Shown here: piece after piece, positions 1 to 18,353 of the stretch
Numbering within the stretch: the stretch's first letter is position 1
How the letters are laid out: every line of letters begins with the position of its first letter
Source: a virus
DNA length: 18,407 nt
Direction: 5' to 3' (one strand)
Virus genome (UHGV): UHGV-0077132
Position numbers and translations under genes: made by a program
The notes under the pieces: generated by a model
What the model was told of the DNA's origin: nothing
What the model saw: the letters and a program-made list of their open reading frames with translations, nothing else
Database searches by the model: none

Positions 1-21
1 GATTTTTTCCATCTGGTACAT
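1..21 (-). CDS. S: Holin S, 5' end only (gene continues beyond the window start)
   Basis: Minus strand reads ATG TAC CAG ATG GAA AAA ATC = MYQMEKI, matching the N-terminus recalled for phage 21/Stx-phage holins, with a Met1/Met4 dual start; SD GGGAGA 6 nt upstream (plus 22-40). Confidence 0.45.
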
Positions 22-96
22 ACCCCGTCTCCCGTTATCCGGAAGCTCACAACAACAAGTGGGGCATCAGCTCACACCGACACCCCCTGCGCATGG

Positions 97-366
97 TTAC
101 ATCATCATTTCGCCGTCAGGCTGAGGCTCTTCACTACCGTCAGGCTGAGACCCGACGCCATCTGAAACAGTACTGTCATCCGCAATGCCTTCCGGCTCCG
201 GAACCGCTGGTACGCCCAGCAGCTCATCCAGAATGGCATCCACTTCTGCATCAAGACGCGCCTCAAGGTTCTGGCGGAGTTTCTGTTTCAGTGCGCTCAG
301 GACTTCTTCAGAGCGCAGGACTTCCTTCACTGCCTCAGCAGTGACCAGGGATGTGATTTCTGACAT
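97..366 (-). CDS. Hypothetical small acidic protein (90 aa, MSEITSLVTAEAVKEV...), between nanS-p and the holin
   Basis: ORF taken from the internal ATG at 366-364; the longer 147-aa form overlaps the 404-586 ORF; coiled-coil-like N-terminus and Asp/Glu/Pro-rich C-terminus; weak SD. Confidence 0.35.
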   Translation of the reverse strand: MSEITSLVTAEAVKEVLRSEEVLSALKQKLRQNLEARLDAEVDAILDELLGVPAVPEPEGIADDSTVSDGVGSQPDGSEEPQPDGEMMM

Positions 367-403
367 GGGATTTTCTCGTTGAAAGGTGTTGTCAAGAAAG
401 TGA

Positions 404-586
404 CTACGGAATGAGCGGATCTTCGGGTTTGCTTCCGGCTGACTGACTGGCGCTGATTCTCTCAGCGGCCCTTTTATCAATCTGCCTGCGCCAGAAATCG
501 CGCACTGCCCTGTACCCACCCGAAAGAAGATACATAACACAGACTGCCGTACAGAAGTACAGCATCACCTGATGAATAAATGTCAT
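404..586 (-). CDS. Hypothetical small membrane protein (60 aa, one predicted TM segment then a basic tail)
   Basis: ORF MTFIHQVMLYFCTAVCVMYLLSGGY...; hydrophobic N-terminus; weak SD GGTAAG upstream; lies between the late cargo and lysis genes. Confidence 0.3.
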   Translation of the reverse strand: MTFIHQVMLYFCTAVCVMYLLSGGYRAVRDFWRRQIDKRAAERISASQSAGSKPEDPLIP

Positions 587-683
587 AATTTCTTACCGTT
601 ATGGTTGACAATGAGAACTGTTTTCATTTAAAAAACCGATATACGAAAGCATCTTTTCTTTACATTCTCCATTGGGATTACCT

Positions 684-721
684 CCGCCAGCTTCCATTCC
701 TGCCGCTGGCGGCCTTTTTTT
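684..721 (+). terminator. Hairpin plus T7 run, plus-strand orientation, abutting the nanS-p stop
   Basis: ccgccagc (684-691) pairs with gctggcgg (705-712) around a 13-nt loop, followed by ttttttt (715-721); large loop lowers confidence. Confidence 0.3.
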
Positions 722-722
722 A

Positions 723-2684
723 TCATGCCGCAGCATCCGCGTTGTTCACTTCCACCTTCACACTGTCAATCAGCAGCGTATATGTCGCCGCCTTTGATAT
801 GCCTGTCAGTTGCAGTTTGTCCGCCGCCCCTGATGCCGGAGATTTCACCAGTGTGAACGGCGTCCCCCGTTTCTCATCCAGTACCGGCGTCACCTGAATG
901 CTGTTGTTTCCGGCAAACTCAAAAGCCAGTGTGTGCCATCCGTTATCAAAGACCCCGAACGTATCCAGCTTCGCATTCGGCTTCTTGTGGTGCATCGCGT
1001 TCAGGTTCGTCGCATCCGTCTGCAGGAAGAAGGACATCAGCATGTCGTTGCCTTCCTCTGCCAGCGTCACTCCCTCCGGCAGGGACGACAACTGCCAGTA
1101 AATGCCCAGGGCAAACTGATTCGGCACCAGTGAACCCGGCAACTTAAACCGTACGCTCACACGTCCTCCTTTCTTCAGCAACTCTGCCCCCTGCCCGGCT
1201 GCATCATGCTCCAGAAACCAGATGTGGTTTTCCGGTTTATTCAGTTGCAGGGCCTTACCTCCCGTAGCCCCCGCATCACTGACCACCGCTTCAGCAATGT
1301 TTTTGTTAACATTGTCTCCGCTCGCCGGTTTGTGATAATAGCGCCAGCCCTGTGATGCCAGGTCTTCGCCGGACGCCAGCAGACTCATCAGGGTTCGGTT
1401 ACTGACCGGGGCTTCCGGCTCTCTCTCCGTACCTTCACCGGAAGGTCCGGTGGGCTTCACCGTATCAGGCTGTTTTCCGGTAATGAATTCAGCGTTTCTC
1501 CCGGCATGCACAAGAATCGCCGTTGCCAGACGGTCGGAAATAATCCCACGACGTGCCCATGATCCAAAATGCGTTTTACGGTCAGCCGTCGTCCAGGTTT
1601 TGGCGTCCGTTCGACCACCGGCTCCGTAATACCCAATATCCGCAACATCCGGATCTTCTGACGGCTCGTTGGTACCCACATTTCGCCCGTTTTCATCCGT
1701 CATAAACGGCACAAAGAAGATTTTTTTTGCGGATTTCGTCTTGTATGCACCATACACCGCATCGTATTGCGAAGAATAAGTCTGCTTCCAGTAGTAGGTC
1801 GTGTCGCCACAAATCCAGGGAACTGATGACGGAGAGCCCCCGAGACACTGACCTCCGAATTCCGACAGGTCAGAACGATATTTTTCCACCATGGAATCAA
1901 ACAGCCCCGGCTGAGTGGCGTATGCACCCTGTTTCAAATCAAACTCGCCCTGCATCCAGACCACTGCAAGCAGAATATTTTTAGGGTTGGCCTTCAGTGC
2001 GGCCTGAGTACGGGTAAGCAGGTCCTTGTACAGTGGCTTATCTACACCCCAGCGTGCCGAGGTCTCGCTTGCGCCGGTGGATTCGCTGAAGGTACCTTCA
2101 TCGCCCGCCAAAAATGCAGAACCACCACGGCAGCACGGAACCAGAAGAATACCGGCATTCGCCGGAATAAACGGCAACAATTTCTTCGCGATATGTAATC
2201 CCTGCCCCACGCATCCATACTGAGCTGCGCTGGCTTTCGGGTGTGAAAACTTACTCAAATCCTGAACATCATGCAGGCAGTGGTCCGCAGGAATAATGTC
2301 ATTGTAGTTACAGGACGCACCACCCGGCGTGACAGTGCTGCGACGCGCCAGCTGTTTAATACGCGGGTCCGGACGGTCATATGTCTCCGGCAGCGGAAGC
2401 CCTTCACCATACGCCATACCGTTTGACTGCCCGGCCAGGGCAACAACAAAGTAATACTCCGGGTTGCTGGTGGTGCTGATAACTGCGCCTTCTCCATCCG
2501 ACGGCTTCACCACCACAGGTGTGGTGACATCACCTTCCGCCGCAATGGCCTGCATCAGGGTATAAGGCGTGATGGCCACCGGACTGCCAAATGGCTGCCA
2601 CCCCTCCTTCAGTTTTTGTGTCAGTCGTTTCGCAAGGTCTGACGGCGATGCCGCCCTGACCACGTCATAGTGTTTAAATGCCAT
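723..2684 (-). CDS. nanS-p: NanS-p-like prophage sialate O-acetylesterase (N-terminal DUF1737-like region plus SASA/SGNH esterase domain), 653 aa
   Basis: ATG at 2684 with SD GGGAGG; GQSNG motif (VVALAGQSNGMAYGEG) typical of the SASA esterase family; N-terminus MAFKHYDVV...EGWQP resembles the DUF1737 start; position matches the gene downstream of stxB in Stx phages. Confidence 0.8.
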   Translation of the reverse strand: MAFKHYDVVRAASPSDLAKRLTQKLKEGWQPFGSPVAITPYTLMQAIAAEGDVTTPVVVKPSDGEGAVISTTSNPEYYFVVALAGQSNGMAYGEGLPLPETYDRPDPRIKQLARRSTVTPGGASCNYNDIIPADHCLHDVQDLSKFSHPKASAAQYGCVGQGLHIAKKLLPFIPANAGILLVPCCRGGSAFLAGDEGTFSESTGASETSARWGVDKPLYKDLLTRTQAALKANPKNILLAVVWMQGEFDLKQGAYATQPGLFDSMVEKYRSDLSEFGGQCLGGSPSSVPWICGDTTYYWKQTYSSQYDAVYGAYKTKSAKKIFFVPFMTDENGRNVGTNEPSEDPDVADIGYYGAGGRTDAKTWTTADRKTHFGSWARRGIISDRLATAILVHAGRNAEFITGKQPDTVKPTGPSGEGTEREPEAPVSNRTLMSLLASGEDLASQGWRYYHKPASGDNVNKNIAEAVVSDAGATGGKALQLNKPENHIWFLEHDAAGQGAELLKKGGRVSVRFKLPGSLVPNQFALGIYWQLSSLPEGVTLAEEGNDMLMSFFLQTDATNLNAMHHKKPNAKLDTFGVFDNGWHTLAFEFAGNNSIQVTPVLDEKRGTPFTLVKSPASGAADKLQLTGISKAATYTLLIDSVKVEVNNADAAA

Positions 2685-2877
2685 GAATCCTCCCGGCCGG
2701 GATAATATTGTGAGTAAAATAAGGAGCGGGCTGAAGTCCGGAAGTTACAGGACAATGGCAGAAGAGAGACGACAGCCCGCAATTCGAAAAAGACCGCGCA
2801 GTTGCGCAGAGTGATTACTATGGGGTATTATTCGTCAGCTGAAATATTACTTCACGTTTTATTGTTTATTCCTTGCC

Positions 2878-2906
2878 GCCCGCGTCTCCCAGCGCGGGCT
2901 TTTTTT
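2878..2906 (+). terminator. Rho-independent terminator, plus-strand orientation
   Basis: Stem gcccgcg (2878-2884) / cgcgggc (2893-2899), 8-nt loop, then seven Ts (2900-2906). Confidence 0.45.
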
Positions 2907-2909
2907 GTC

Positions 2910-2937
2910 CATAAGAAAGCCCCTCCGGAGAGGGGCT
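2910..2937 (-). terminator. Possible minus-strand terminator hairpin about 350 nt downstream of the lipoprotein gene
   Basis: Perfect 8-bp stem agcccctc / gaggggct with cgga loop (2918-2937); minus strand continues TTCTTAT. Confidence 0.25.
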
Positions 2938-3282
2938 GGAGAGTGGCGCTATGTGCCATTGCATGGTGCCGGGTGCCTCCCGGTGAGTTCAGCCCGGTGA
3001 CACTGAACCCGCGTCATTCTCGTTTTGATAATCAGAGATTATACCATCACCAGTCGCCCCTCCGCTCAGGGGGATTCACCATGCCGTTCTCTTTTAACAA
3101 ATTCGCCGCTAACAGGACAACATTCCGCTTTCTGAGTTGTGAGGAATTTAACACTTCACACCTGTGTGCATTTTCTACAGGCTGATCCCAGCACCACAAT
3201 ACATCGCAGGCAACAGAAGCCAAATGCCCCACCACAGAAAAAACATGCAATTATGATTATTGTTTACTGCAAAGATGTAGAA

Positions 3283-3711
3283 TCACGGTTTAAAATCCAG
3301 CACTCCATTGTGAAATACTTTATATACTTCCGGAGACGGCGGAACTGGTATATCAGCATGCTTCACCGCATTCATCGCTTCACGACATAAATCGGGGTCT
3401 CCACCTTCTCTTTTAACCTGTAGCAGAAGACCATTCGGGGCCATATACATTCTCAGTGAACACTCTTTTCCTGAATACTTACTCGCATCCTTTAACTGTT
3501 CTTCTATGGCTTTCCTGACCTGAATGGCATACTGCCTGATTTCTTCACTGGCATCAGGGGTACGTTCCGATGAGCTCAAATTTTGCGACTTTATTAATTT
3601 ATCTGAGTGATACAGAGAAGCATCATAATTATTTGTCGATACATCTTTTGTGCAGCCAGTTGTCAGACTGGCTAATATCAAAACAAGAACTGGTACAGCA
3701 CGGCAATACAT
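3283..3711 (-). CDS. Secreted lipoprotein with a TolA C-terminal domain (domain III)-like fold, 142 aa; candidate periplasmic TolA-III decoy
   Basis: ATG at 3711 with SD GGAG; signal peptide MYCRAVPVLVLILASLTTGC (lipobox-like, Cys21); Ser/Asp-rich linker; C-terminal ~85 aa align with E. coli TolA domain III as recalled (YSGKECSLRMYMAPNGLLLQVKREGGDPDLC ... IPVPPSPEVYKVFHNGVLDFKP versus TolA YAGKTCTLRIKLAPDGMLLDIKPEGGDPALC ... IPKPPSQAVYEVFKNAPLDFKP); both disulfide cysteines conserved. Confidence 0.8.
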   Translation of the reverse strand: MYCRAVPVLVLILASLTTGCTKDVSTNNYDASLYHSDKLIKSQNLSSSERTPDASEEIRQYAIQVRKAIEEQLKDASKYSGKECSLRMYMAPNGLLLQVKREGGDPDLCREAMNAVKHADIPVPPSPEVYKVFHNGVLDFKP

Positions 3712-3841
3712 TTATCCATCTCCATATTAACAAGAACAATTATCTATAAAATATAGTAAATATGCGGGATCCGGGAGGACTTGTAACTATCATCTCCGGA
3801 TCAGCATGTAGTTTTTATTTTTCCGGATGATATATGCCGCA

Positions 3842-3870
3842 ATAATACCTCTGCATACAGATGCCTGCAA
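3842..3870 (-). promoter_or_regulatory. Candidate sigma70 promoter for the TolA-III-like lipoprotein gene
   Basis: Minus strand: -35 TTGCAG (3870-3865), 17-nt spacer, -10 TATTAT (3847-3842); about 130 nt upstream of the ATG. Confidence 0.3.
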
Positions 3871-3913
3871 ATATCTGCGAAGCATCCGGCGAGAATAAAC
3901 AAGGAAGTCTGAG

Positions 3914-3933
3914 GCTATCTTATATGATAGCCT
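3914..3933. promoter_or_regulatory. Perfect 20-bp palindrome GGCTATC-TTATAT-GATAGCC, candidate dimeric regulator site upstream of the lipoprotein promoter
   Basis: Exact inverted repeat of 7 bp with an AT-rich 6-bp spacer; no adjacent T-run, so not a terminator. Confidence 0.3.
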
Positions 3934-3989
3934 GTTGCTCAAAAGACAATGATTCACTCATCAGAACCAACAACGCATAATGCAGATAA

Positions 3990-4066
3990 TGGACCGCCAT
4001 CGAGGACTCGAACCCCGCGCAGCCAGCTTCGAAGGCTGGCGCTCTATCCCGATGAGCTAATGGCGG
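3990..4066 (-). tRNA. argO: tRNA-Arg (anticodon UCG), phage-borne, argO-like
   Basis: Minus strand folds as a cloverleaf: acceptor CCGCCAT/ATGGCGG, D-arm GCTC..GAGC, anticodon stem CCAGC/GCTGG with loop CTTCGAA, T-loop TTCGAGT, encoded 3' CCA; boundaries +/-1 nt. Confidence 0.7.
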
Positions 4067-4075
4067 TATGTGATA

Positions 4076-4151
4076 TGGTGGCCCTTGCTGGATTTGAACC
4101 AGCGACCTGGCGATTATGAGTCGCTCGCTCTCACCACTGAGCTAAAGGGCC
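4076..4151 (-). tRNA. ileZ: tRNA-Ile2 (anticodon CAU, lysidine type), ileX/ileZ-like
   Basis: Minus strand GGCCCTTTAGCTCAGTGGTGAGAGCGAGCGACTCATAATCGCCAGGTCGCTGGTTCAAATCCAGCAAGGGCCACCA; near-identical architecture to E. coli ileX as recalled; anticodon loop CTCATAA; 3' CCA encoded. Confidence 0.8.
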
Positions 4152-4191
4152 GGGCGTAGGATAATAACGGTACGTAACTAATTCTGCAATA

Positions 4192-4530
4192 TCATCCGTT
4201 CTGACTGACTAAATCCTGAACTTCCCGAACCGTCTGCTCAAAACGTTCAGTCTCCAGCTCAACGCCTGTAGCACGACGGCCCAGTGCCAGTGCAGCTTTA
4301 ACTGTTGAACCTGACCCCATAAAAAAATCTGCAACCAGGTCACCCGGACGACTGCTTGCGCTGATTATCTGCTGCAGCATTTCTGCCGGTTTTTCGCACG
4401 GATGTTTCCCGGGATAGAACTGCACCGGTTTATGCGTCCAGACATCGGTATACGGCACCTGCGCCGTCACGCCAAAATACCGCCGCAGTCGGCATTCACA
4501 ACCACCAGCGCATTTAACGTTCAGGCACAA
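4192..4530 (-). pseudogene. 5'-truncated N6/N4 DNA methyltransferase remnant (C-terminal part only)
   Basis: Contains the AdoMet-binding motif DLVADFFMGSGSTV and the upstream WT..P..F.PGKHPCEKP block of beta-class MTases, but no DPPY catalytic motif and no ATG start (the ORF opens with TTG right after a terminator hairpin). Confidence 0.6.
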
Positions 4531-4532
4531 AA

Positions 4533-4556
4533 AAACCCGCTCGACGGCGGGTTTAA
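4533..4556 (-). terminator. Rho-independent terminator, minus-strand orientation, at the upstream break of the methylase remnant
   Basis: Stem aaacccgc / gcgggttt (8 bp) with loop tcgacg; on the minus strand it is followed by TTTT (plus A-run 4529-4532). Confidence 0.4.
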
Positions 4557-4885
4557 GCTGTGTGACGAAGTAACCACTCTTAACAGCATAACCAATTTTT
4601 TACGTACGTAAACTACTAAATGATATTTGTGAGAATGCCACCGAGTGTTCAAAACACCACCACAAATACATAAGAAAACTTCAACAAATAACCAATGAAT
4701 AATTTCCGATGTTATTTTTAGGTTGTTTAAATTAAGCCAAAAAATTATAGGGCGCTTATAAATAAGTGTCATTAATATAAATTAGCTAATAGATTTATTT
4801 TTGTTCAAACAAGAGCCATGAATAGGATTAGATAGAAAAGGTTCAGATAAAAATAGAGATCTACGTCACAAATTAAATGAGAAAC

Positions 4886-4965
4886 TAAAACTTACATCTT
4901 GAAATAATCACATTGATTAGATGAATATTTATCGCGCAGTGACATCATTTTTTTATAATAGTTCA
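4886..4965 (+). promoter_or_regulatory. Porin promoter region: OmpR-box-like repeats and a -10 TATAAT with a poor -35
   Basis: cTTACATcTTGAAAtaatCACAT (4891-4913) resembles ompC/ompF OmpR boxes; TATAAT at 4954-4959 about 20 nt before the ATG; strongly AT-rich upstream region. Confidence 0.35.
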
Positions 4966-4980
4966 AAAAAAGGGCGTACA

Positions 4981-6063
4981 ATGAAAAAATTAACAGTGGC
5001 AATTTCTGCTGTAGCTGCATCAGTACTGATGGCGATGTCTGCTCAGGCAGCTGAAATTTATAATAAAGACAGTAACAAGCTGGATCTATACGGGAAAGTT
5101 AATGCCAAGCACTACTTCTCCTCTAATGATGCAGATGATGGTGATACTACTTATGCTCGTCTTGGCTTCAAAGGTGAAACCCAAATCAACGATCAACTGA
5201 CTGGTTTCGGTCAGTGGGAATATGACTTCAAAGGCAACCGTGCTGAATCTCAAGGTTCTTCCAAAGACAAAACCCGTCTTGCATTTGCAGGCCTGAAATT
5301 TGGTGATTACGGCTCAATCGATTACGGTCGTAACTACGGTGTAGCATACGACATCGGTGCGTGGACTGACGTTCTGCCAGAATTCGGTGGTGATACCTGG
5401 ACCCAGACAGATGTGTTCATGACTGGCCGCACTACTGGTGTTGCAACTTATCGTAACAACGACTTCTTTGGTCTGGTCGATGGCCTGAACTTTGCTGCTC
5501 AGTATCAGGGTAAAAATGACCGCACTGACGTAACTGAAGCCAATGGTGATGGTTTCGGTTTCTCCACTACTTATGAGTATGAAGGATTCGGCGTGGGTGC
5601 AACCTATGCTAAATCAGATCGCACTGACGGTCAGGTCGCCTATGGTAAGAGCAAATTCAATGCCTCCGGCAAAAATGCGGAAGTATGGGCTGCAGGCCTG
5701 AAATATGATGCGAACAATATCTATCTGGCTACCACATATTCTGAAACTCAGAATATGACCGTTTTTGGTAATAACCATATTGCAAACAAAGCACAAAACT
5801 TTGAAGCAGTAGCACAATATCAGTTTGACTTCGGTCTGCGCCCATCTGTTGCTTACCTTCAGTCAAAAGGTAAAGACCTTGGTGTTCATGGTGACCGAGA
5901 CTTAGTCAAGTATGTCGATGTCGGTGCTACTTACTACTTTAATAAAAACATGTCCACTTTTGTTGATTACAAAATCAACTTAATTGACGATAGTAAGTTT
6001 ACCAAAACAGCTGGTATTGATACCGACGACATCGTCGCTGTAGGTCTGGTTTATCAGTTCTAA
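4981..6063 (+). CDS. nmpC: Outer-membrane general porin of the OmpC/PhoE/NmpC/Lc family (phage-borne porin moron), 360 aa
   Basis: ATG at 4981 (the ORF-track start at 4921 lies upstream of the -10); signal peptide [23 protein letters not shown]; mature N-terminus [16 protein letters not shown] and C-terminus ...VAVGLVYQF typical of enterobacterial porins; same Q-adjacent, opposite-orientation position as nmpC in DLP12 and lc in PA-2. Confidence 0.9.
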
Positions 6064-6074
6064 TCTGACTTACG

Positions 6075-6114
6075 AAAAAGATATGTTGCGGGAGGCTTTG
6101 CCTCCCCAACATAT
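6075..6114 (-). terminator. Strong rho-independent terminator on the minus strand, candidate tR' downstream of Q
   Basis: 15-bp stem (atatgttgcgggaggc / gcctccccaacatat, one bulge), 3-nt loop, then C plus TTTTT on the minus strand (plus A-run 6075-6079). Confidence 0.5.
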
Positions 6115-6118
6115 AAGT

Positions 6119-6251
6119 GGAGCCCTCAAGCCACTTCCTTTAGAAGCACTACCTTGCTTCTTACTATATAAACCTTCTGTTATATATTACCCTTTATTTT
6201 GGGGGCGTTTCCACGCCCCATTTTTAATAACTTTTAGTAAACAATTGCATA
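6119..6251 (-). promoter_or_regulatory. Expected location of the late promoter PR' and Q-utilisation site
   Basis: Inferred from position between Q and the terminator at 6075-6114; candidate -35 TTGATA on the minus strand, but no clean -10 identified. Confidence 0.3.
6202..6225 (+). terminator. Rho-independent terminator for the porin gene
   Basis: Stem ggggcg (6202-6207) / cgcccc (6214-6219), loop tttcca, then ATTTTT (6220-6225). Confidence 0.5.
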
Positions 6252-6635
6252 TCAATTAGAATTATTAGCAACGATATCCATATCTAACCGGATATCTAAT
6301 GCCATTAACATCCCTTCAATTATGCCCTCAGCCTTCTGTAACCTTTTCCCGATATAACCATCCGAGCAGCAATGCTTACTTGCCAGTGACATGAATGTCA
6401 TACCACATACATAATAATCTACTAATAAATCGTGTAAATCGCTGTTGTTCTTTTTCAGACGGGCCATGCACCCGCAAATGATCATCGCGTCATCGTCACA
6501 ACATTGCGGGCGAGATTTTACTTTTGAAGGAATTAATCCCTTAAAACCGGCAGCAATGGACGACCAGGTCACATCCTCATGATTATTTGCCGCCCATGCG
6601 CCCCAGCGTTCAAGAACCATCTGAATATCACGCAT
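6252..6635 (-). CDS. Q: Late antiterminator Q (Stx-phage/phage 82-type), 127 aa
   Basis: First ATG at 6635 gives [38 protein letters not shown]...[16 protein letters not shown], matching the recalled Q of Stx2 phages; start overlaps the upstream gene stop (TAATG). Confidence 0.85.
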
Positions 6636-7492
6636 TATTCGCACTCACCAACCAGATTGAGAATGACCGCTGCACCGTCGTCTTCCATGCATTCACCCTT
6701 ACCACTTGCCAGAAACCAGCGGCACACCTCCACGGCTTCAGCGCGTGTCACCGGTTTGATGGTTGCCAGCAATTTTTCAAGGTAGCGCTCGCGGTCATAT
6801 ACCGATTCGTGATGCTCAGAGTAACCAAACTCATCGCCCTGTTCTTTAGTTGCAGTGTGGCGAACACTGTAGAGCCAGTCCCAGTAAACGAACTCGCGAA
6901 CAACATCAGACAGCGTATAAGGCTCAGGCAGCACATCGCGATATCCATCAACAAATGCCCGACGCTGTTCATCAATTTCGTTCATGCGGCTGCCGCCAAT
7001 GCTTCCGGCTTTTTTCTCTGCCGCAGTCCAGCCCCAGAGATGATCGTTGATAAATTTCTGGGAAGACCTGATGACCCGCTCTGCTTCCACATCTTCGAGC
7101 GCTGCTTCATAGCTACCAAACGTAGCCCTGACTGATGCCGCTTTTTTGATGTTCTCCCGGGCGTTCCTGATAACCTGCGCAGGGTTATCCATGCCGATGA
7201 TGCCGAACGCAACTTGGAAAGGTTCGTAACCATTCGCCAGCAGATAACGCGAATAGCGTTCCTGAGCCTCTTTTGGGGAAATTTTAATTTTCACCAGCGC
7301 AGCCTCAGCAGCATCCAGATGTGCGGGTTCGTTCAGACGGATAACCTCCAGCACCCAAAGATAAGCATCAGTCTGCTTATGCCCGGTGATTCTCCGTTGC
7401 TCTGGCAGGGGCTTGATGTTTGCGAGGGCGGAGCTGTACGCTGCCGTCGGGATGGTGAATAGTGCTTTATGTTCGTTATTATCAGTACGCAT
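6635..7492 (-). CDS. Conserved phage protein of unknown function (nin-region position), 285 aa
   Basis: Long ORF translationally coupled at both ends (TAATG overlaps with the primase stop and the Q start); no motif recognised. Confidence 0.65.
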
Positions 7493-8460
7493 TACGCAAC
7501 CGCCTTTTTCTTATGGAAAACCAGCTCTCGAACCTGATCACCGTTCATGAGCATATTGTTGAAATCATCGTGATCCGGCCAGTACACGCTCACGCGCTGC
7601 AGGTCATTCTTTGCCATCAGATTGGCATGAGCACATTCGCAAGCCGCAGCCAGCCCGGTGGCGCTGTTCTCGTCACGGTCGGCAAAAATAATCAGGTGCA
7701 GAACACCAGCTGGTACGCGAAACTTTTTCATAAAGCCGCTGTTAATGGTTGCCCAGGTGTTCACGTTATAAATCTGGTGCGCTGACAGCGCTGTTTCGAT
7801 GCCTTCGGCGATACCCAGAGTGCTGGCGACAGGAAACATGCGGATAGCTACAGAACGAGCGTGATCCAAATAGTTATCTTCCTGCAGGGATTTGAGGCGC
7901 TTTGCACTGCTACCGATATCTGCTTTTTTATCACCATCAAGCAGAGTCTGGTGCAGATAGCACAACTCCCCTTTATCGTCCGTAGCAAGTGAATAAAGAG
8001 ACTGGAACACACTCCCGTTGTGTCTCTGCCTGGCATTGAACCGGATCGCCTCAGCAGGAAGACTGAATATTCCACGAGAATTAAGATACGCTGCGCCGGA
8101 TGTACCACGCAGTGCCTCCAGTTTTGAAAACTTGCTCAATACCCGTTTGCGTAAGCTGGTGGCGCTGCTGGTTACCGGGATTTTAACCCGTTGGTAATCA
8201 TTACCGATCAGGCGGTCTATTTCGGTACAAATCTCGTTAAATGGCTTCGCCTGTGTCAGGGTGACAAGTTTCATACCATCGCCACTACCACATACACAGA
8301 TCCACGTTCCTGCACCGTCGCGGTCATCAATTCGGAACTTGCCACGTGCACCGCATACCGGGCATTCACCCTTGAAGTGATTTTTTCCTGTTATCGGCGG
8401 CAAGCCGAAGTGCTCTAATATTTCAGGCCAGCGGCCTTTCGCTGCAGCTGCTGTTTTCAT
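7492..8460 (-). CDS. Phage DNA primase-like protein (zinc-binding plus Toprim-like), 322 aa
   Basis: N-terminal Cys cluster CPVCG...WICVCGSGDG; follows the helicase gene with a 1-nt gap; typical helicase-primase replication module. Confidence 0.65.
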   Translation of the reverse strand: MKTAAAAKGRWPEILEHFGLPPITGKNHFKGECPVCGARGKFRIDDRDGAGTWICVCGSGDGMKLVTLTQAKPFNEICTEIDRLIGNDYQRVKIPVTSSATSLRKRVLSKFSKLEALRGTSGAAYLNSRGIFSLPAEAIRFNARQRHNGSVFQSLYSLATDDKGELCYLHQTLLDGDKKADIGSSAKRLKSLQEDNYLDHARSVAIRMFPVASTLGIAEGIETALSAHQIYNVNTWATINSGFMKKFRVPAGVLHLIIFADRDENSATGLAAACECAHANLMAKNDLQRVSVYWPDHDDFNNMLMNGDQVRELVFHKKKAVA

Positions 8461-8461
8461 C

Positions 8462-10120
8462 TTACTGACTCAAACTGTTTATATTTTTCTGGAGTTGTTG
8501 CTTTGCTTGCATGATGCGCCAAGCCTCAGTGCCTATTGGCATCTCGCTTCGCTCACCTCGTTCCTGAGACAGAGGAATCGTTGCCTGCAATTTTTCTATA
8601 GTTCTCTGCGTCCGCTGACGGCCTTTGGCAAACCGAATCAGCTTGTGTTTGATGTAGTTACTTACTTCTGGGCTTATTTCCATCGGGAAACTGCTCAACC
8701 CATCAGGCCATTCACCGAATTTCTCCCTGAAAGTGTGAGCACACCATCCATCACTGACTGGACGCCCCAGCGAAGCACGCTGGCGCTGATAAAATTTGAT
8801 CTGACTCCACCAGGACTGTTTCTCTGCCTTCGTCGACTGATGCTGATTTTTACCCAGCTTATTAAGTTTGCGGCTAGTGTCAGTATCAACGTCTTCACCT
8901 CGCAGCGGCTTGTGTCCACATTTCGGGCAAACATAGACGCCAACTGGCTTCATGTAGTGGCATTGAGGGCATTCATGTGGCAGTTTTTCGGCCCGTTCCT
9001 CAACTGCGCGGCGCGCGCTTTCCTCCATGCCATCAGACTTACCGGGAAGATCGTCGTACTCGATTGAATCCGGATAACCCAAACGGTGCACGGTGCCGCT
9101 GTGATCGAAGATAAGGCAGGACGCTTTACCCGGTGCGGTGCGCAGCCCACGCCCGAGTGCCTGCAACCAGCGAATTTCGCTTTTTGTTGGCCTGGCGTAG
9201 ATGATGCAACGAACGTCACTATCGAATCCGGCTACCAGAACGCCCACACTAACGATGATTTTCGTTGCACCGGTTTCAAAGCGGTGAATGATGGTCTGGC
9301 GCTCATCTACCGGAGTGTCGGCGGTCATTACCTCAGCGTTAACACCCGCCAGGTTAAACTGGATTGTCAGATAATTGGCGTGAGCTACGTTGACGCAGAA
9401 AGCGATGGTAGGTAGATCCCGACCATTCTCCAGCCAGTTCTGTACGATGTCGCCCACCAGCGTAGATCCGCACATGATTTCAGCCAGCTGTGTTTCGTTG
9501 TAATCGCGGCCGTACTCAAGCGAAGATGTGGTTTTAACACCTTTCAGATCCGGCTTAGTTGGCGCGTAAAATTCGTATTTACTCAGATCGCCACGCTGGA
9601 TTAACTCGCCGATGGTGGTCGGCTTAATCAGTCGGTCATAGTATTTGCCCAGGAACGGGGAAAACGGAGTACCCGACAGGCCAATCACCTTTACGCCTTT
9701 GCCGCGCAGACGTTCGATATCCTTCAGGATGCGTTTTTTACGCAGGTGCGCTTCGTCGATAATCAGCAGATCGATATTTTCAGGAAAAACACGACGAATA
9801 AGCGTATCAGCGCTGGCAATCTGAATTTTCCGGTCCGGATCGTAGTTCGGGTGATCCGCCCAGATATAACCGATTTCATCTCCAGGTAAACCATACTGCA
9901 CGAACCGATTAGCCGTCTGACCAATCAGGATGGTGTACGGAACACAGAACAGAACGCGCATACCACGGCTGACAAAACCAGCAACTATGAAGGCTGCCAG
10001 ACCCGTTTTACCGCTACCGGTTGGCGAGTACACCATGAAAGTGTCGTTTGCCTTCCAGTCACGGCGCAACATGTTTAACGCTCGTTCCTGTGCAAAATTC
10101 GGCGTGATCGTCAGCTCCAT
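8462..10120 (-). CDS. SF2 DEAD/DEAH-box replicative helicase, 552 aa
   Basis: Walker A SPTGSGKT, DEAH box IIDEAH, C-terminal zinc ribbon CPQCHY...CPKCGH; ATG at 10120 with SD GGGAG. Confidence 0.85.
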   Translation of the reverse strand: MELTITPNFAQERALNMLRRDWKANDTFMVYSPTGSGKTGLAAFIVAGFVSRGMRVLFCVPYTILIGQTANRFVQYGLPGDEIGYIWADHPNYDPDRKIQIASADTLIRRVFPENIDLLIIDEAHLRKKRILKDIERLRGKGVKVIGLSGTPFSPFLGKYYDRLIKPTTIGELIQRGDLSKYEFYAPTKPDLKGVKTTSSLEYGRDYNETQLAEIMCGSTLVGDIVQNWLENGRDLPTIAFCVNVAHANYLTIQFNLAGVNAEVMTADTPVDERQTIIHRFETGATKIIVSVGVLVAGFDSDVRCIIYARPTKSEIRWLQALGRGLRTAPGKASCLIFDHSGTVHRLGYPDSIEYDDLPGKSDGMEESARRAVEERAEKLPHECPQCHYMKPVGVYVCPKCGHKPLRGEDVDTDTSRKLNKLGKNQHQSTKAEKQSWWSQIKFYQRQRASLGRPVSDGWCAHTFREKFGEWPDGLSSFPMEISPEVSNYIKHKLIRFAKGRQRTQRTIEKLQATIPLSQERGERSEMPIGTEAWRIMQAKQQLQKNINSLSQ

Positions 10121-17066: not shown

Positions 17067-18353
17067 ATGAGTAACGCATCATACCCGACAGGCGTTGAAA
17101 ACCATGGAGGATCACTCCGTATATGGTTTCACTATAATGGCAAACGTGTCAGAGAAAACCTCGGTGTTCCTGACACAGCCAAAAACCGGAAGATCGCTGG
17201 TGAACTTCGCACTTCCGTTTGTTTTGCAATCAGAATGGGGAGTTTCGACTATGCCGCGCAGTTCCCTAATTCCCCTAACCTGAAACACTTTGGTCTGGGA
17301 AAAAGAGAGATAACCGTTAAGGCACTTTCGGAAAAATGGTTGGACCTTAAGAAAATTGAGATTTGTGCGAATGCACTTAACCGTTACCAGTCAGTAATTA
17401 AAAACATGTTACCAATGTTAGGTGAAAAAAAACTGGTTTCATCCATAACAAAAGAGGATTTACTTTTCGTAAGGAGAGATTTGTTGACCGGTTACCAAAA
17501 GCTTTCTAATGGAAAGACTTCTTCCATAAAAGGGCGCTCAGTGGTCACGGTAAACTACTATATGACAACCATAGCTGGAATGTTTCAATTTGCAACAGAT
17601 AATGGTTATACCTCAGGAAACCCATTTAACGGTCTGGCTCCCTTAAAAAAGTCCAAGGTAAAACCAGATCCTCTCACCCGTGACGAATTTATTCGTTTTA
17701 TTGAGGCTTGCCGTCATCAACAAACAAAAAACCTGTGGATTCTCGCTGTATACACGGGTATTCGTCACGGGGAGTTGGTATCGCTGGCATGGGAAGATAT
17801 AGACCTTAAAGCAAGGACTATAACCATCCGTAGAAATTATACAAAACTTGGCGAATTCACTCCACCAAAAACCGATGCAGGCACCGGAAGGACAATTCAT
17901 CTGGTTCAACCAGCTATTGATGCTCTTAAAAGCCAGGCGGAAATGACCATGCTTGGAAAGCAACATTCTGTAGAGGTGAAGCAGAGGGAATATGGGAGAA
18001 CTGCTGTGCATAAATGCACTTTTGTTTTTAGTCCTCAGGTAACAAAACAGCAGCAGTTGTCCGGACCTCACTACAAGGTTGACTCCATCAGGGAGTCATG
18101 GACAAGTATCTTAAAACGCGCAGGTCTGAGACACAGAAAATCGTACCAATCCAGGCATACTTATGCATGCTGGTCACTTGCCGCAGGAGCTAATCCTAGT
18201 TTTATCGCAAGCCAGATGGGCCACACAAACGCACAAATGGTATTCAATGTTTACGGAGCATGGATGAAAGACAACAATCACGAACAGATAGAACTCCTTA
18301 ACAAAAGACTATCTGAAAGTGTCCCATGTATGCCCCATAAGAAAGTTGGGTAA
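17067..18353 (+). CDS. int: Tyrosine site-specific integrase with an N-terminal Arm-type DNA-binding domain, 428 aa
   Basis: SD GGAGG; N-terminal GSLRIWFHYNGKRVRENLG arm motif; C-terminal catalytic region with R..HxxR and ...RHTYACWSLAAGANPSFIASQMGHTNAQMVFNVYGAW (Tyr nucleophile). Confidence 0.9.
   Translation: MSNASYPTGVENHGGSLRIWFHYNGKRVRENLGVPDTAKNRKIAGELRTSVCFAIRMGSFDYAAQFPNSPNLKHFGLGKREITVKALSEKWLDLKKIEICANALNRYQSVIKNMLPMLGEKKLVSSITKEDLLFVRRDLLTGYQKLSNGKTSSIKGRSVVTVNYYMTTIAGMFQFATDNGYTSGNPFNGLAPLKKSKVKPDPLTRDEFIRFIEACRHQQTKNLWILAVYTGIRHGELVSLAWEDIDLKARTITIRRNYTKLGEFTPPKTDAGTGRTIHLVQPAIDALKSQAEMTMLGKQHSVEVKQREYGRTAVHKCTFVFSPQVTKQQQLSGPHYKVDSIRESWTSILKRAGLRHRKSYQSRHTYACWSLAAGANPSFIASQMGHTNAQMVFNVYGAWMKDNNHEQIELLNKRLSESVPCMPHKKVG

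Follow-up and report, generated by a model that had tools for sequence, protein, structure and literature searches.

A predicted TolA domain III lipoprotein in the variable cargo slot of a mosaic lambdoid late region from an Escherichia coli prophage

We analysed positions 1-6650 of an 18,407-nucleotide stretch of viral DNA (UHGV virus genome UHGV-0077132; the whole stretch is called the window here). Read along the minus strand, this region holds the antiterminator gene Q, a putative late promoter PR', the 3' remnant of a DNA methyltransferase (methylase) gene, two tRNA genes, an AT-rich unit encoding a small predicted lipoprotein with a TolA domain III, a convergent pair of small RNA (sRNA) elements, nanS-p, two small open reading frames (ORFs) and the start of a holin gene, with a general porin gene on the opposite strand between Q and PR' (table 1). 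It thus has the makings of a lambdoid late region: Q and PR', then a cargo slot that precedes nanS-p and the lysis genes. An initial annotation, made from the sequence alone, had read the region as the late-region scaffold of a Shiga toxin (Stx) phage in which the toxin genes had been replaced by other cargo; the genes it listed on the minus strand (Q, tRNAs, methylase remnant, TolA-like ORF, nanS-p and small ORFs) were all recovered by profile and tRNA searches. Our findings support a somewhat different model. The region is very probably the late-regulatory and moron region of a lambda-like siphovirus prophage of about 46 kb, inserted in mlrA of a non-Shiga-toxigenic E. coli, and organized as a three-part mosaic with the TolA unit in its variable slot.

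The late region of the Stx2a phage Stx2_12E129_yecE (LC567842) runs Q, a 65-amino-acid ORF, a full methylase gene, ileZ, argN, argO, stx2A, stx2B, nanS-p (yjhS), DUF1378, DUF826 and holin. As in this phage, in Stx2a_WGPS2 (NC_049941) and in Stx2a phages of the 933W/Sp5 type, the window presents Q, methylase, ileZ, argN, the sRNA region and nanS-p through to holin in that order; unlike them, it lacks stxA, stxB, argO, the 65-amino-acid ORF and the StxS leader with its terminator tR', and its methylase gene is truncated. The Stx-phage-like gene order proposed by the initial annotation is therefore borne out by alignment to Stx2_12E129_yecE, with the reservations that only seven codons of the holin lie in the window and that argO, StxS and tR' are missing. 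According to alignment and BLAST comparison, the AT-rich unit occupies exactly the argO-stxA-stxB interval of that phage, to which it has no match, replacing about 1.45 kb that holds those three genes. Its GC content is 0.409, against 0.52-0.54 in the flanks, and within it only 3282-3657 matches elsewhere (82% identity in mEp460_ev081 and in the prophage of the uropathogenic E. coli [UPEC] strain 98191). Deviant GC content, an own promoter and a ribosome-binding site are usual traits of morons (PMC8065619), and the unit displays the first of these together with a promoter-like site of its own (3871-3842) and a GGAG ribosome-binding site. Homology to every comparison phage stops at the same two places: one lies about 21 nucleotides beyond argN (3969), the other where the STnc100 element has its 5' edge (3142-3159). 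These shared breakpoints suggest to us that cargo is exchanged by recombination, with the tRNA block and the sRNA element as anchors, STnc100 being the conserved promoter-distal (nanS-p-side) border of the slot.

The segments that surround the slot have different nearest relatives. The tRNA segment (3969-4488: argN, ileZ and the methylase 3' end) is 95% identical to Stx2 phages, and its CAT tRNA aligns with the Stx2-phage copy of ileZ without a mismatch; argO, the third tRNA gene of Stx phages, is absent. The methylase gene, full-length in Stx2 phages (352 amino acids), is cut here at a recombination junction within 4489-4530, and the identical truncation is found in two IMG/VR contigs (L013 and L020). 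Beyond this junction, 4531-6635 is 98.7% identical at the DNA level to phage 4A7 (genus recorded as Bievrevirus) and about as close to Lambda_4C10, ev017 and Perceval as well as to several ECOR-derived phages, each of which shows the order Q, convergent porin, holin. The same module is 87-95% identical, PR' block included, to quuD-nmpC of the K-12 cryptic prophage DLP12 (94.6% between Q and quuD), where quuD is followed by convergent nmpC, the PR' block and, about 120 nucleotides further on, essD. With its QuuD-type Q, convergent porin and late promoter block, the module thus belongs to the DLP12/PA-2 type, like DLP12 quuD-nmpC-essD and phages 4A7, ev017, Lambda_4C10 and Perceval. In DLP12 and the 4A7-type phages, however, the holin lies within about 140 nucleotides of PR', whereas here about 4.5 kb intervenes, filled by the methylase remnant, tRNAs, TolA unit, sRNAs, nanS-p and small ORFs. 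Q itself is by homology an antiterminator of the Q21 family, scoring 181 bits against PF06530 (cut-off 26) and matching the solved Q21 structures 6P18/6JNX (E=4e-8 over residues 8-88); its amino acid identity is 81% to Q of Traversvirus phi296 (933W-like) and 51% to Q of Stx2_12E129_yecE.

The third segment, 1-3142, is only about 76% identical to Stx phages. Its NanS-p has the DUF1737, SASA (with the GQSN motif retained) and DUF6645 parts expected by sequence of this esterase, and is a divergent allele with 63% amino acid identity to NanS-p of an Stx2a phage, and a nanS-p copy 99.5% identical in DNA lies in contig L013. Q and nanS-p are therefore both related to the Stx-phage lineage, and to this extent the initial annotation stands. 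Between the cargo gene and nanS-p lies a predicted convergent sRNA pair, whose plus-strand, anti-sRNA-like element ends in a strong intrinsic terminator and is conserved in Stx1, Stx2 and non-Stx phages; its allele is the same as in the Stx1-converting phage NC_004913, phi296 and Stx2_12E129_yecE, differs from the AsxR region of Sp5 and does not match Stx2a_WGPS2. A different plus-strand allele, containing CAACACAACA and possibly AgvB-like, was seen in the yecE prophage of the Shiga-toxin-producing E. coli (STEC) strain ERL04-3476.

The placement of PR' bears directly on which genes are late cargo. The block of about 85 nucleotides assigned to PR' comprises promoter-like hexamers separated by a 16-nucleotide spacer (-35 TTTACG, 4612-4607; -10 TATGCT, 4590-4585), an invariant box (TAAGAGTGGTTAC) and, at 4554-4531, a GC-rich hairpin with U-run. 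The same block directly follows the Q stop codon in phi296, Stx2_12E129_yecE and NC_004913. Counted from a start at the AAGAG just past the -10 hexamer of NC_004913, the downstream hairpin terminator falls near +258 and a GUAUU motif near +173, and in Sakai Stx phages StxS was mapped as 258 nucleotides with an RNase E site at +173 (PMC7547250). The conservation of the block after Q and this fit to StxS are the grounds for our assignment, with transcription in the window probably starting near 4579. The 188-nucleotide spacer right after Q (6251-6064) was considered as the site of PR'/tR' and rejected, since the block found after Q elsewhere maps here to 4615-4531, beyond the porin. As an observation on that spacer, which separates the porin and Q stop codons (6064-6251), it holds two hairpins, including a plus-strand terminator (6202-6219). 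IpeX, an sRNA that lowers OmpC and OmpF, is said to adjoin the porin gene in PA-2/DLP12 (PMC8065619); a permissive Rfam search of 2600-6700 gave nothing credible besides STnc100 and the tRNAs, with no match in the porin-Q spacer where an IpeX-like RNA would lie. The porin gene, preceded by a region of 28% GC (4621-4980), sits on the opposite strand between Q and the putative PR', so it would not be late-transcript cargo and would be an independently transcribed gene. The initial annotation had counted it among the cargo replacing the toxin; the TolA-like unit does lie exactly in the toxin interval, and the porin does not. A near-identical porin, that of phage Perceval, is expressed in the LF82 lysogen at a level 10-fold over local background (PMC9928086). 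Neither the 258-nucleotide StxS leader nor the tR' known from Sakai-type Stx phages is present, and only the short hairpin with U-run comes after the promoter block. This hairpin falls at about +25 to +48, and its counterpart in Stx1 and Stx2 phages is followed by some 200 nucleotides more of StxS and then the mapped tR'. Because the body of StxS is missing here, as in DLP12 and 4A7, any constitutive PR' RNA would be only about 50 nucleotides long.

Table 1. Features of the late region (window positions 1-6650)
Feature	Position	Strand	Remarks
Class II holin S start, first 7 codons (MYQMEKI)	1..21	-	rest of the 71-amino-acid holin outside the window
DUF826 small protein	97..366	-	PF05696, E=3.5e-37; conserved ORF between nanS-p and holin
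DUF1378 small protein	404..586	-	PF07125, E=2e-36; conserved ORF between nanS-p and holin
NanS-p-type sialate O-acetylesterase	723..2684	-	DUF1737 + SASA + DUF6645, profile search
Anti-sRNA-like element	2845..2906 (5' end approximate)	+	convergent with STnc100; terminator stem 2878-2899 plus T-run
STnc100-family sRNA element	2907..3113	-	RF02076 full-length match, 162.4 bits (gathering 47), E=4e-37; terminator 2937-2918
AT-rich cargo unit (moron), GC 0.41	3143..3968	-	junctions from alignment to Stx2 phages
142-amino-acid predicted lipoprotein with TolA domain III	3283..3711	-	PF06519, E=4e-23
tRNA-Arg, anticodon TCG, argN equivalent of Stx phages	3990..4066	-	
tRNA, anticodon CAT, annotated tRNA-Ile (ileZ type)	4076..4151	-	
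N6/N4 DNA methyltransferase 3' remnant, 98 codons	4192..4488	-	profile positions 135-220 of 221 only
Putative late promoter PR' and Q-utilisation block	4531..4615	-	conserved in five phages
OmpC/NmpC/Lc-type general porin	4981..6063	+	PF00267 (Porin_1), E=2.5e-151
Q antiterminator, Q21/933W/QuuD family, 127 amino acids	6252..6635	-	PF06530, E=7e-54

The PR' site of lambdoid phages is a documented address for cargo, its recognition reportedly being also due to Juhala and colleagues in 2000. A moron insertion site downstream of PR', common to Stx and non-Stx prophages, was described together with convergent sRNAs 3' of the moron coding sequence in the Sakai prophages Sp5 (stx2), Sp3, Sp4, Sp9, Sp10, Sp11, Sp15 and Sp17 (Tree et al. 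2014, PMC4104026). Given the putative PR' start, the present locus is a site of this kind, with a cargo coding sequence of deviant composition lying downstream of PR' and upstream of lysis genes. Like the Sakai sites, it has Q and PR', a variable cargo coding sequence, a convergent sRNA pair, a large ORF (nanS-p) and lysis genes; unlike them, the cargo is a TolA domain III lipoprotein, the porin is lodged between Q and PR', and the host is not an enterohaemorrhagic E. coli (EHEC).

The toxin genes themselves were not detected. With Stx2A and Stx2B as tblastn queries against the window and two stretches that together span the whole prophage, the best match had E=0.18 and no toxin gene was found, while the same search recovered the toxin genes of two Stx2 control phage loci at 98-100% identity; a search for Stx1A/B limited to the slot (2900-4200) gave a best E of 0.025 and no toxin gene. 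We also ran a chimeric blastn query against all complete E. coli genomes, in which the 826-nucleotide TolA unit served as anchor to 450-nucleotide fragments of stx2A and stx1A, in sensitive mode and with the anchor kept longer than the stx fragments. In the chromosomes of the closest genome (NZ_CP070162.1) and of 14 other carriers of the unit, plasmids being separate records, the anchor was the sole match and no DNA like stx1A or stx2A appeared; the query picked up stx2e and stx2g genomes at about 81% identity, so its sensitivity was adequate. The absence of stxA and stxB noted by the initial annotation is thus confirmed, no stx gene lies elsewhere in the same prophage, and the element is not a Shiga-toxin-converting phage in the sense of carrying stxA and stxB.

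How common the scaffold is was gauged from IMG/VR contigs with the 25-nucleotide invariant core of STnc100, whose content up to the first upstream landmark was classified; the sample, not a random draw, took in the first 80 contigs out of at least 120 with a match, and 71 of the 80 were assessable with an upstream landmark. The slot held stx2AB in 5 of these 71 and was essentially empty (about 320 nucleotides or less, no cargo ORF) in 20, while at least 18 carried a small DUF3927 ORF, which is absent here. A TerB-domain protein (143 amino acids) occupied the slot in 3 to 4 of the 71, between STnc100 and argO in L085, L088 and L045; an AraC-family regulator (L060), an IS3 element and an HNH endonuclease occurred in single contigs, and there were several unannotated two-gene cassettes, one of which (L054) encodes a DUF6731 protein with a membrane partner. 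The unannotated cassettes of L025, L040 and L079 are on the opposite strand and look like possible defence genes. Clearly, stx is a minority occupant of a shared scaffold. Two contigs, each with one arm of our region beside other contents, bracket its history: in L020 the arm running from Q through porin, PR', methylase remnant and ileZ to argN is 97.4% identical, and argO stands where our region has the TolA unit; in L013 the arm from holin to nanS-p is 99.5% identical and the slot is empty. The scaffold is likewise carried by non-Stx prophages in STEC (yecE in ERL04-3476) and in the Stx-phage genus Traversvirus (phi296). Being common to so many non-Stx prophages, the layout does not discriminate Stx phages. 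The full 2600-6650 arrangement was found in 15 of 5,426 complete E. coli genomes, all from human or unrecorded sources and mostly human; the TolA unit is 99.9-100% identical across them, on at least two prophage backbones. One carrier, the neonatal-meningitis strain CE10, has the same late region and the same integrase at mlrA, on a different immunity and replication backbone.

Could the region nevertheless descend directly from an Stx phage whose stxAB (and argO) gave way to other cargo? The exact replacement of argO-stxA-stxB, the 95% identity of the tRNA/methylase-remnant segment to Stx2 phages and the resemblance of Q to that of phi296, a Traversvirus of the Stx-phage subfamily Sepvirinae, would fit such a history, as would an integrase 66% identical to that of NC_004913 and the insertion in mlrA (yehV), a known attachment site of Stx1 phages in O157:H7. 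Yet the nanS-p arm stands at just about 76% identity to Stx phages and the Q-porin-PR' module at 98.7% to non-Stx phages; tblastn at E<0.1 gives no trace of stx; relatives that share the arms have argO or an empty slot and not stx; few scaffold-bearing contigs hold the toxin; the structural genes are of the lambda-like siphovirus type; and none of the 15 genomes with the arrangement, meningitis isolate CE10 included, has a detectable chromosomal stxA. We regard direct descent as very unlikely. Each of the three modules is nearest to a different set of relatives, neither arm has stx in its closest relatives, and of stx itself no remnant is left; the sequence evidence thus favours stx and the TolA-like gene as alternative occupants of one shared recombination hot spot. 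The proposal of an Stx-phage variant with its toxin replaced thus holds for the gene order and for the TolA unit in the stx slot, while the scaffold proves generic to lambdoid prophages and forms a mosaic with a non-Stx Q-porin module.

The mosaic was presumably assembled through recombination at conserved linker sequences. Its first part (4531-6635) would be the DLP12/4A7-type Q, convergent porin, PR' and Q-utilisation block; its second (3969-4488) the Stx-phage-type ileZ, argN and methylase remnant; and its third (1-3142) the sRNA pair, nanS-p, DUF1378, DUF826 and holin start, of a type common in EHEC lambdoid prophages, with the variable slot for the TolA unit (3143-3968) bounded by the tRNA block on one side and STnc100 on the other. 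In the lysogen, PR' transcripts would stop at the hairpin just downstream, while the porin gene, and probably the lipoprotein gene, would be transcribed from their own promoters. Upon induction, Q would modify RNA polymerase at PR', and read-through would proceed past the hairpin over the methylase remnant, tRNAs, lipoprotein gene, sRNA terminator, nanS-p and lysis genes.

The setting in the host is well defined. Over its full length the window is 99.9% identical to the chromosome of E. coli FDAARGOS_1283 (NZ_CP070162.1, 2,801,822-2,820,234), where it corresponds to the right-hand 18 kb or so of the prophage. The prophage is bounded by a 5' fragment of mlrA at one end and the rest of mlrA at the other, with integrase and excisionase genes adjoining mlrA; the insertion leaves a 228-amino-acid MlrA ORF (window 17067-18353 and beyond). 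Farther left lie lambda-like structural genes for terminase, HK97-type capsid, tape measure, gpJ, Lom and tail fibre. Comparison of ORF coordinates revealed a net 6-nucleotide indel somewhere between about 10,842 and 13,323 which, with the overall identity, points to a very close but non-identical source for the window; given the place of the indel, coordinates within 1-6650 convert to the prophage locus of NZ_CP070162.1 (L001) by a simple offset of 15,000. The prophage integrase is 83% identical to the one beside yecE in STEC ERL04-3476 and 66% identical to that of NC_004913; by sequence, the three are one family with different attachment sites. Upstream of Q (6635-10120) there is no Nin/RusA region. 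A 285-amino-acid protein (phrog_6204, function not known) overlaps the Q start by one base; ahead of it come a toprim-domain protein and a DEAD/DEAH-box helicase, apparently the replication module, and all three are found at 99% identity in an STEC prophage (L006). Elsewhere in the prophage, outside the window (L001 11774-12100), a 108-amino-acid 'TonB family protein' is encoded near the lysis genes, and in phage Perceval the morons expressed in the lysogen include a 'TonB fragment' (PMC9928086). Our prophage thus bears fragments of both energy-transducing envelope proteins, TolA and TonB. Within the late region, ORFs 2802-3185 (+) and 3790-3957 (-) were rejected as genes, for they have no credible family match and overlap RNA or regulatory sequence.

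The cargo gene deserves attention in its own right. Thr at position +2 of a lipoprotein directs it to the outer membrane. The N-terminus, MYCRAVPVLVLILASLTTGC, is a signal peptide with lipobox LTTG|C and Thr at +2, and by this rule the protein most likely has its anchor in the outer membrane and faces the periplasm. After a linker of about 33 residues (21-53; low model confidence), residues 54-142 align gap-free and end to end with E. coli TolA 333-421 (E=8e-27 to solved TolAIII chains; 48/89 identical, 54%), keeping both cysteines and the C-terminal LDFKP strand with the equivalents of D418 and K420. In TolA these two residues are needed for binding of TolB, colicin N and phage g3p via beta-strand addition, with affinities of about 1 uM for colicin N and about 40 uM for TolB (PMC4339652). 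Measured against TolA, a globular domain III with the beta-3 strand is present by sequence, whereas the domain I inner-membrane anchor that couples to TolQ-TolR and the long helical domain II have given way, in this phage-borne gene, to a lipoprotein signal peptide and a short linker in a protein of only 142 amino acids. TolA profiles match solely at their last 90 or so positions, and the TIGR02794 cut-off is passed on about the last 97 profile positions alone. Without domains I and II, the name 'cell envelope integrity protein TolA' given by the Prokaryotic Genome Annotation Pipeline (PGAP) overstates this ORF. Homologues form a narrow E. coli family of about 142 amino acids (58-94% identity, lipobox conserved, domain core invariant), which PHROGs lists as of unknown function, and occur in other lambdoid late regions. 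The 142-amino-acid homologue of mEp460_ev081 and the UPEC 98191 prophage (82% DNA identity over the coding sequence) likewise lies between Q/tRNAs and holin; there, however, it follows a Q82-type Q, is on the holin side of an STnc100-like element and is not accompanied by nanS-p. In E. coli 98191 (L008 4456-5430) and IMG/VR contigs L030, L056 and L081, two TolA-domain lipoprotein genes, 28% identical and both with a lipobox, stand in tandem between the STnc100-like element and holin. A few further observations concern the gene and its surroundings. It uses ATA for 4/6 Ile and AGA/AGG for 4/7 Arg codons; the neighbouring ileZ-type tRNA would read ATA. Of the Stx-phage tRNAs, however, the only one absent is argO, whose TCT anticodon reads AGA/AGG. 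A 23-codon hydrophobic ORF (MFFLWWGIWLLLPAMYCGAGISL; 3174-3245, minus strand) lies 35 nucleotides past the TolA-like stop, with no obvious ribosome-binding site, and may be due to chance.

As to function, an engineered TolAIII exported to the periplasm serves in biotechnology to render E. coli leaky and free its periplasmic proteins (Wan & Baneyx 1998; Levengood-Freyermuth 1993, as cited in PMC6195910). A free TolA domain III might, we tentatively suggest, act as a decoy that binds the ligands of TolA and so gives tolerance to group A colicins and filamentous phage. Its targets would be the translocation domains of group A colicins, g3p of filamentous phage and the N-terminus of TolB. At low lysogenic expression the tighter-binding colicin and g3p domains would be favoured, whereas at late expression levels TolB might be titrated as well, which would loosen the outer membrane and aid release. 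It is conceivable, though doubtful at present, that the lipoprotein stands for an undescribed class of phage-encoded Tol-Pal mimics, with interception of colicins and g3p on the one hand and late-stage TolB titration on the other.

Another reading would take the region for decaying junk of a defective prophage, with methylase remnant, TolA-like fragment and porin as functionless relics and the gene order as a fossil. The methylase is indeed a remnant, the 'TolA' is a domain-sized fragment of a host protein, the DLP12 counterpart in K-12 is cryptic with its porin gene interrupted by IS5, and in FDAARGOS_1283 two genes outside the window are impaired: the portal is annotated as frameshifted (L001 3726-6310) and the YdfR gene beside the holin is a partial pseudogene (L001 14466-14801). 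Against such decay, the TolA-like ORF has gained a lipoprotein signal peptide, a conserved lipobox and a ribosome-binding site and belongs to a family of proteins of similar length with an invariant core; the 826-nucleotide unit is near-identical in 15 genomes on at least two backbones; the porin, Q, nanS-p, DUF1378 and DUF826 ORFs are all intact; phages with a near-identical Q-porin module are known as complete genomes with named hosts; and the porin of one of these, Perceval, is expressed in a lysogen. Wholesale decay is in our judgement highly improbable. Several points nonetheless weigh against the mosaic late region as we propose it, besides the non-random survey sample. The prophage may be defective in its closest genome, unless the frameshift and pseudogene are assembly errors, and if so late expression may never occur in this host. 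Promoter-like sites are no commoner than in shuffled sequence (8 found, 9.4 expected), and three points are, like the decoy function, deduced rather than observed: where PR' transcription starts, that it reads through the hairpin, and that the lipoprotein gene is expressed on its own. The AlphaFold model of the lipoprotein (17-sequence alignment) reached a predicted local distance difference test score (pLDDT) of 58, and although its top five PDB matches are all TolAIII, their template modelling (TM) scores are 0.3-0.5; in view of these low values the model is not used as evidence of fold. Literature searches for phage TolA-like lipoproteins found no relevant paper, and a Tol-Pal review makes no mention of prophages.

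Overall, these findings have little import for the biology of Stx phages, adding one more case of the documented cargo slot downstream of PR'. Cargo swapping of this sort is already known and published, and public genomes have contained the arrangement ever since the sequencing of CE10; what is new is only the unstudied TolA domain III lipoprotein. The locus does illustrate that stx fills only a minority of the slots in a widespread scaffold (5 of the 71 sampled contigs), that a tRNA block and an STnc100 element mark the borders of an exchangeable slot, and that a porin gene can lie between Q and the promoter on which Q acts, outside the late transcript. A practical by-product is a conserved phage-borne lipoprotein, mislabelled TolA by current pipelines, that offers a testable candidate. 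Should it block colicins or filamentous phage, or modulate the integrity of the outer membrane, it would represent a new mechanism of prophage-encoded host protection, and Tol-Pal mimics would be present in many E. coli genomes under a misleading 'TolA' annotation.

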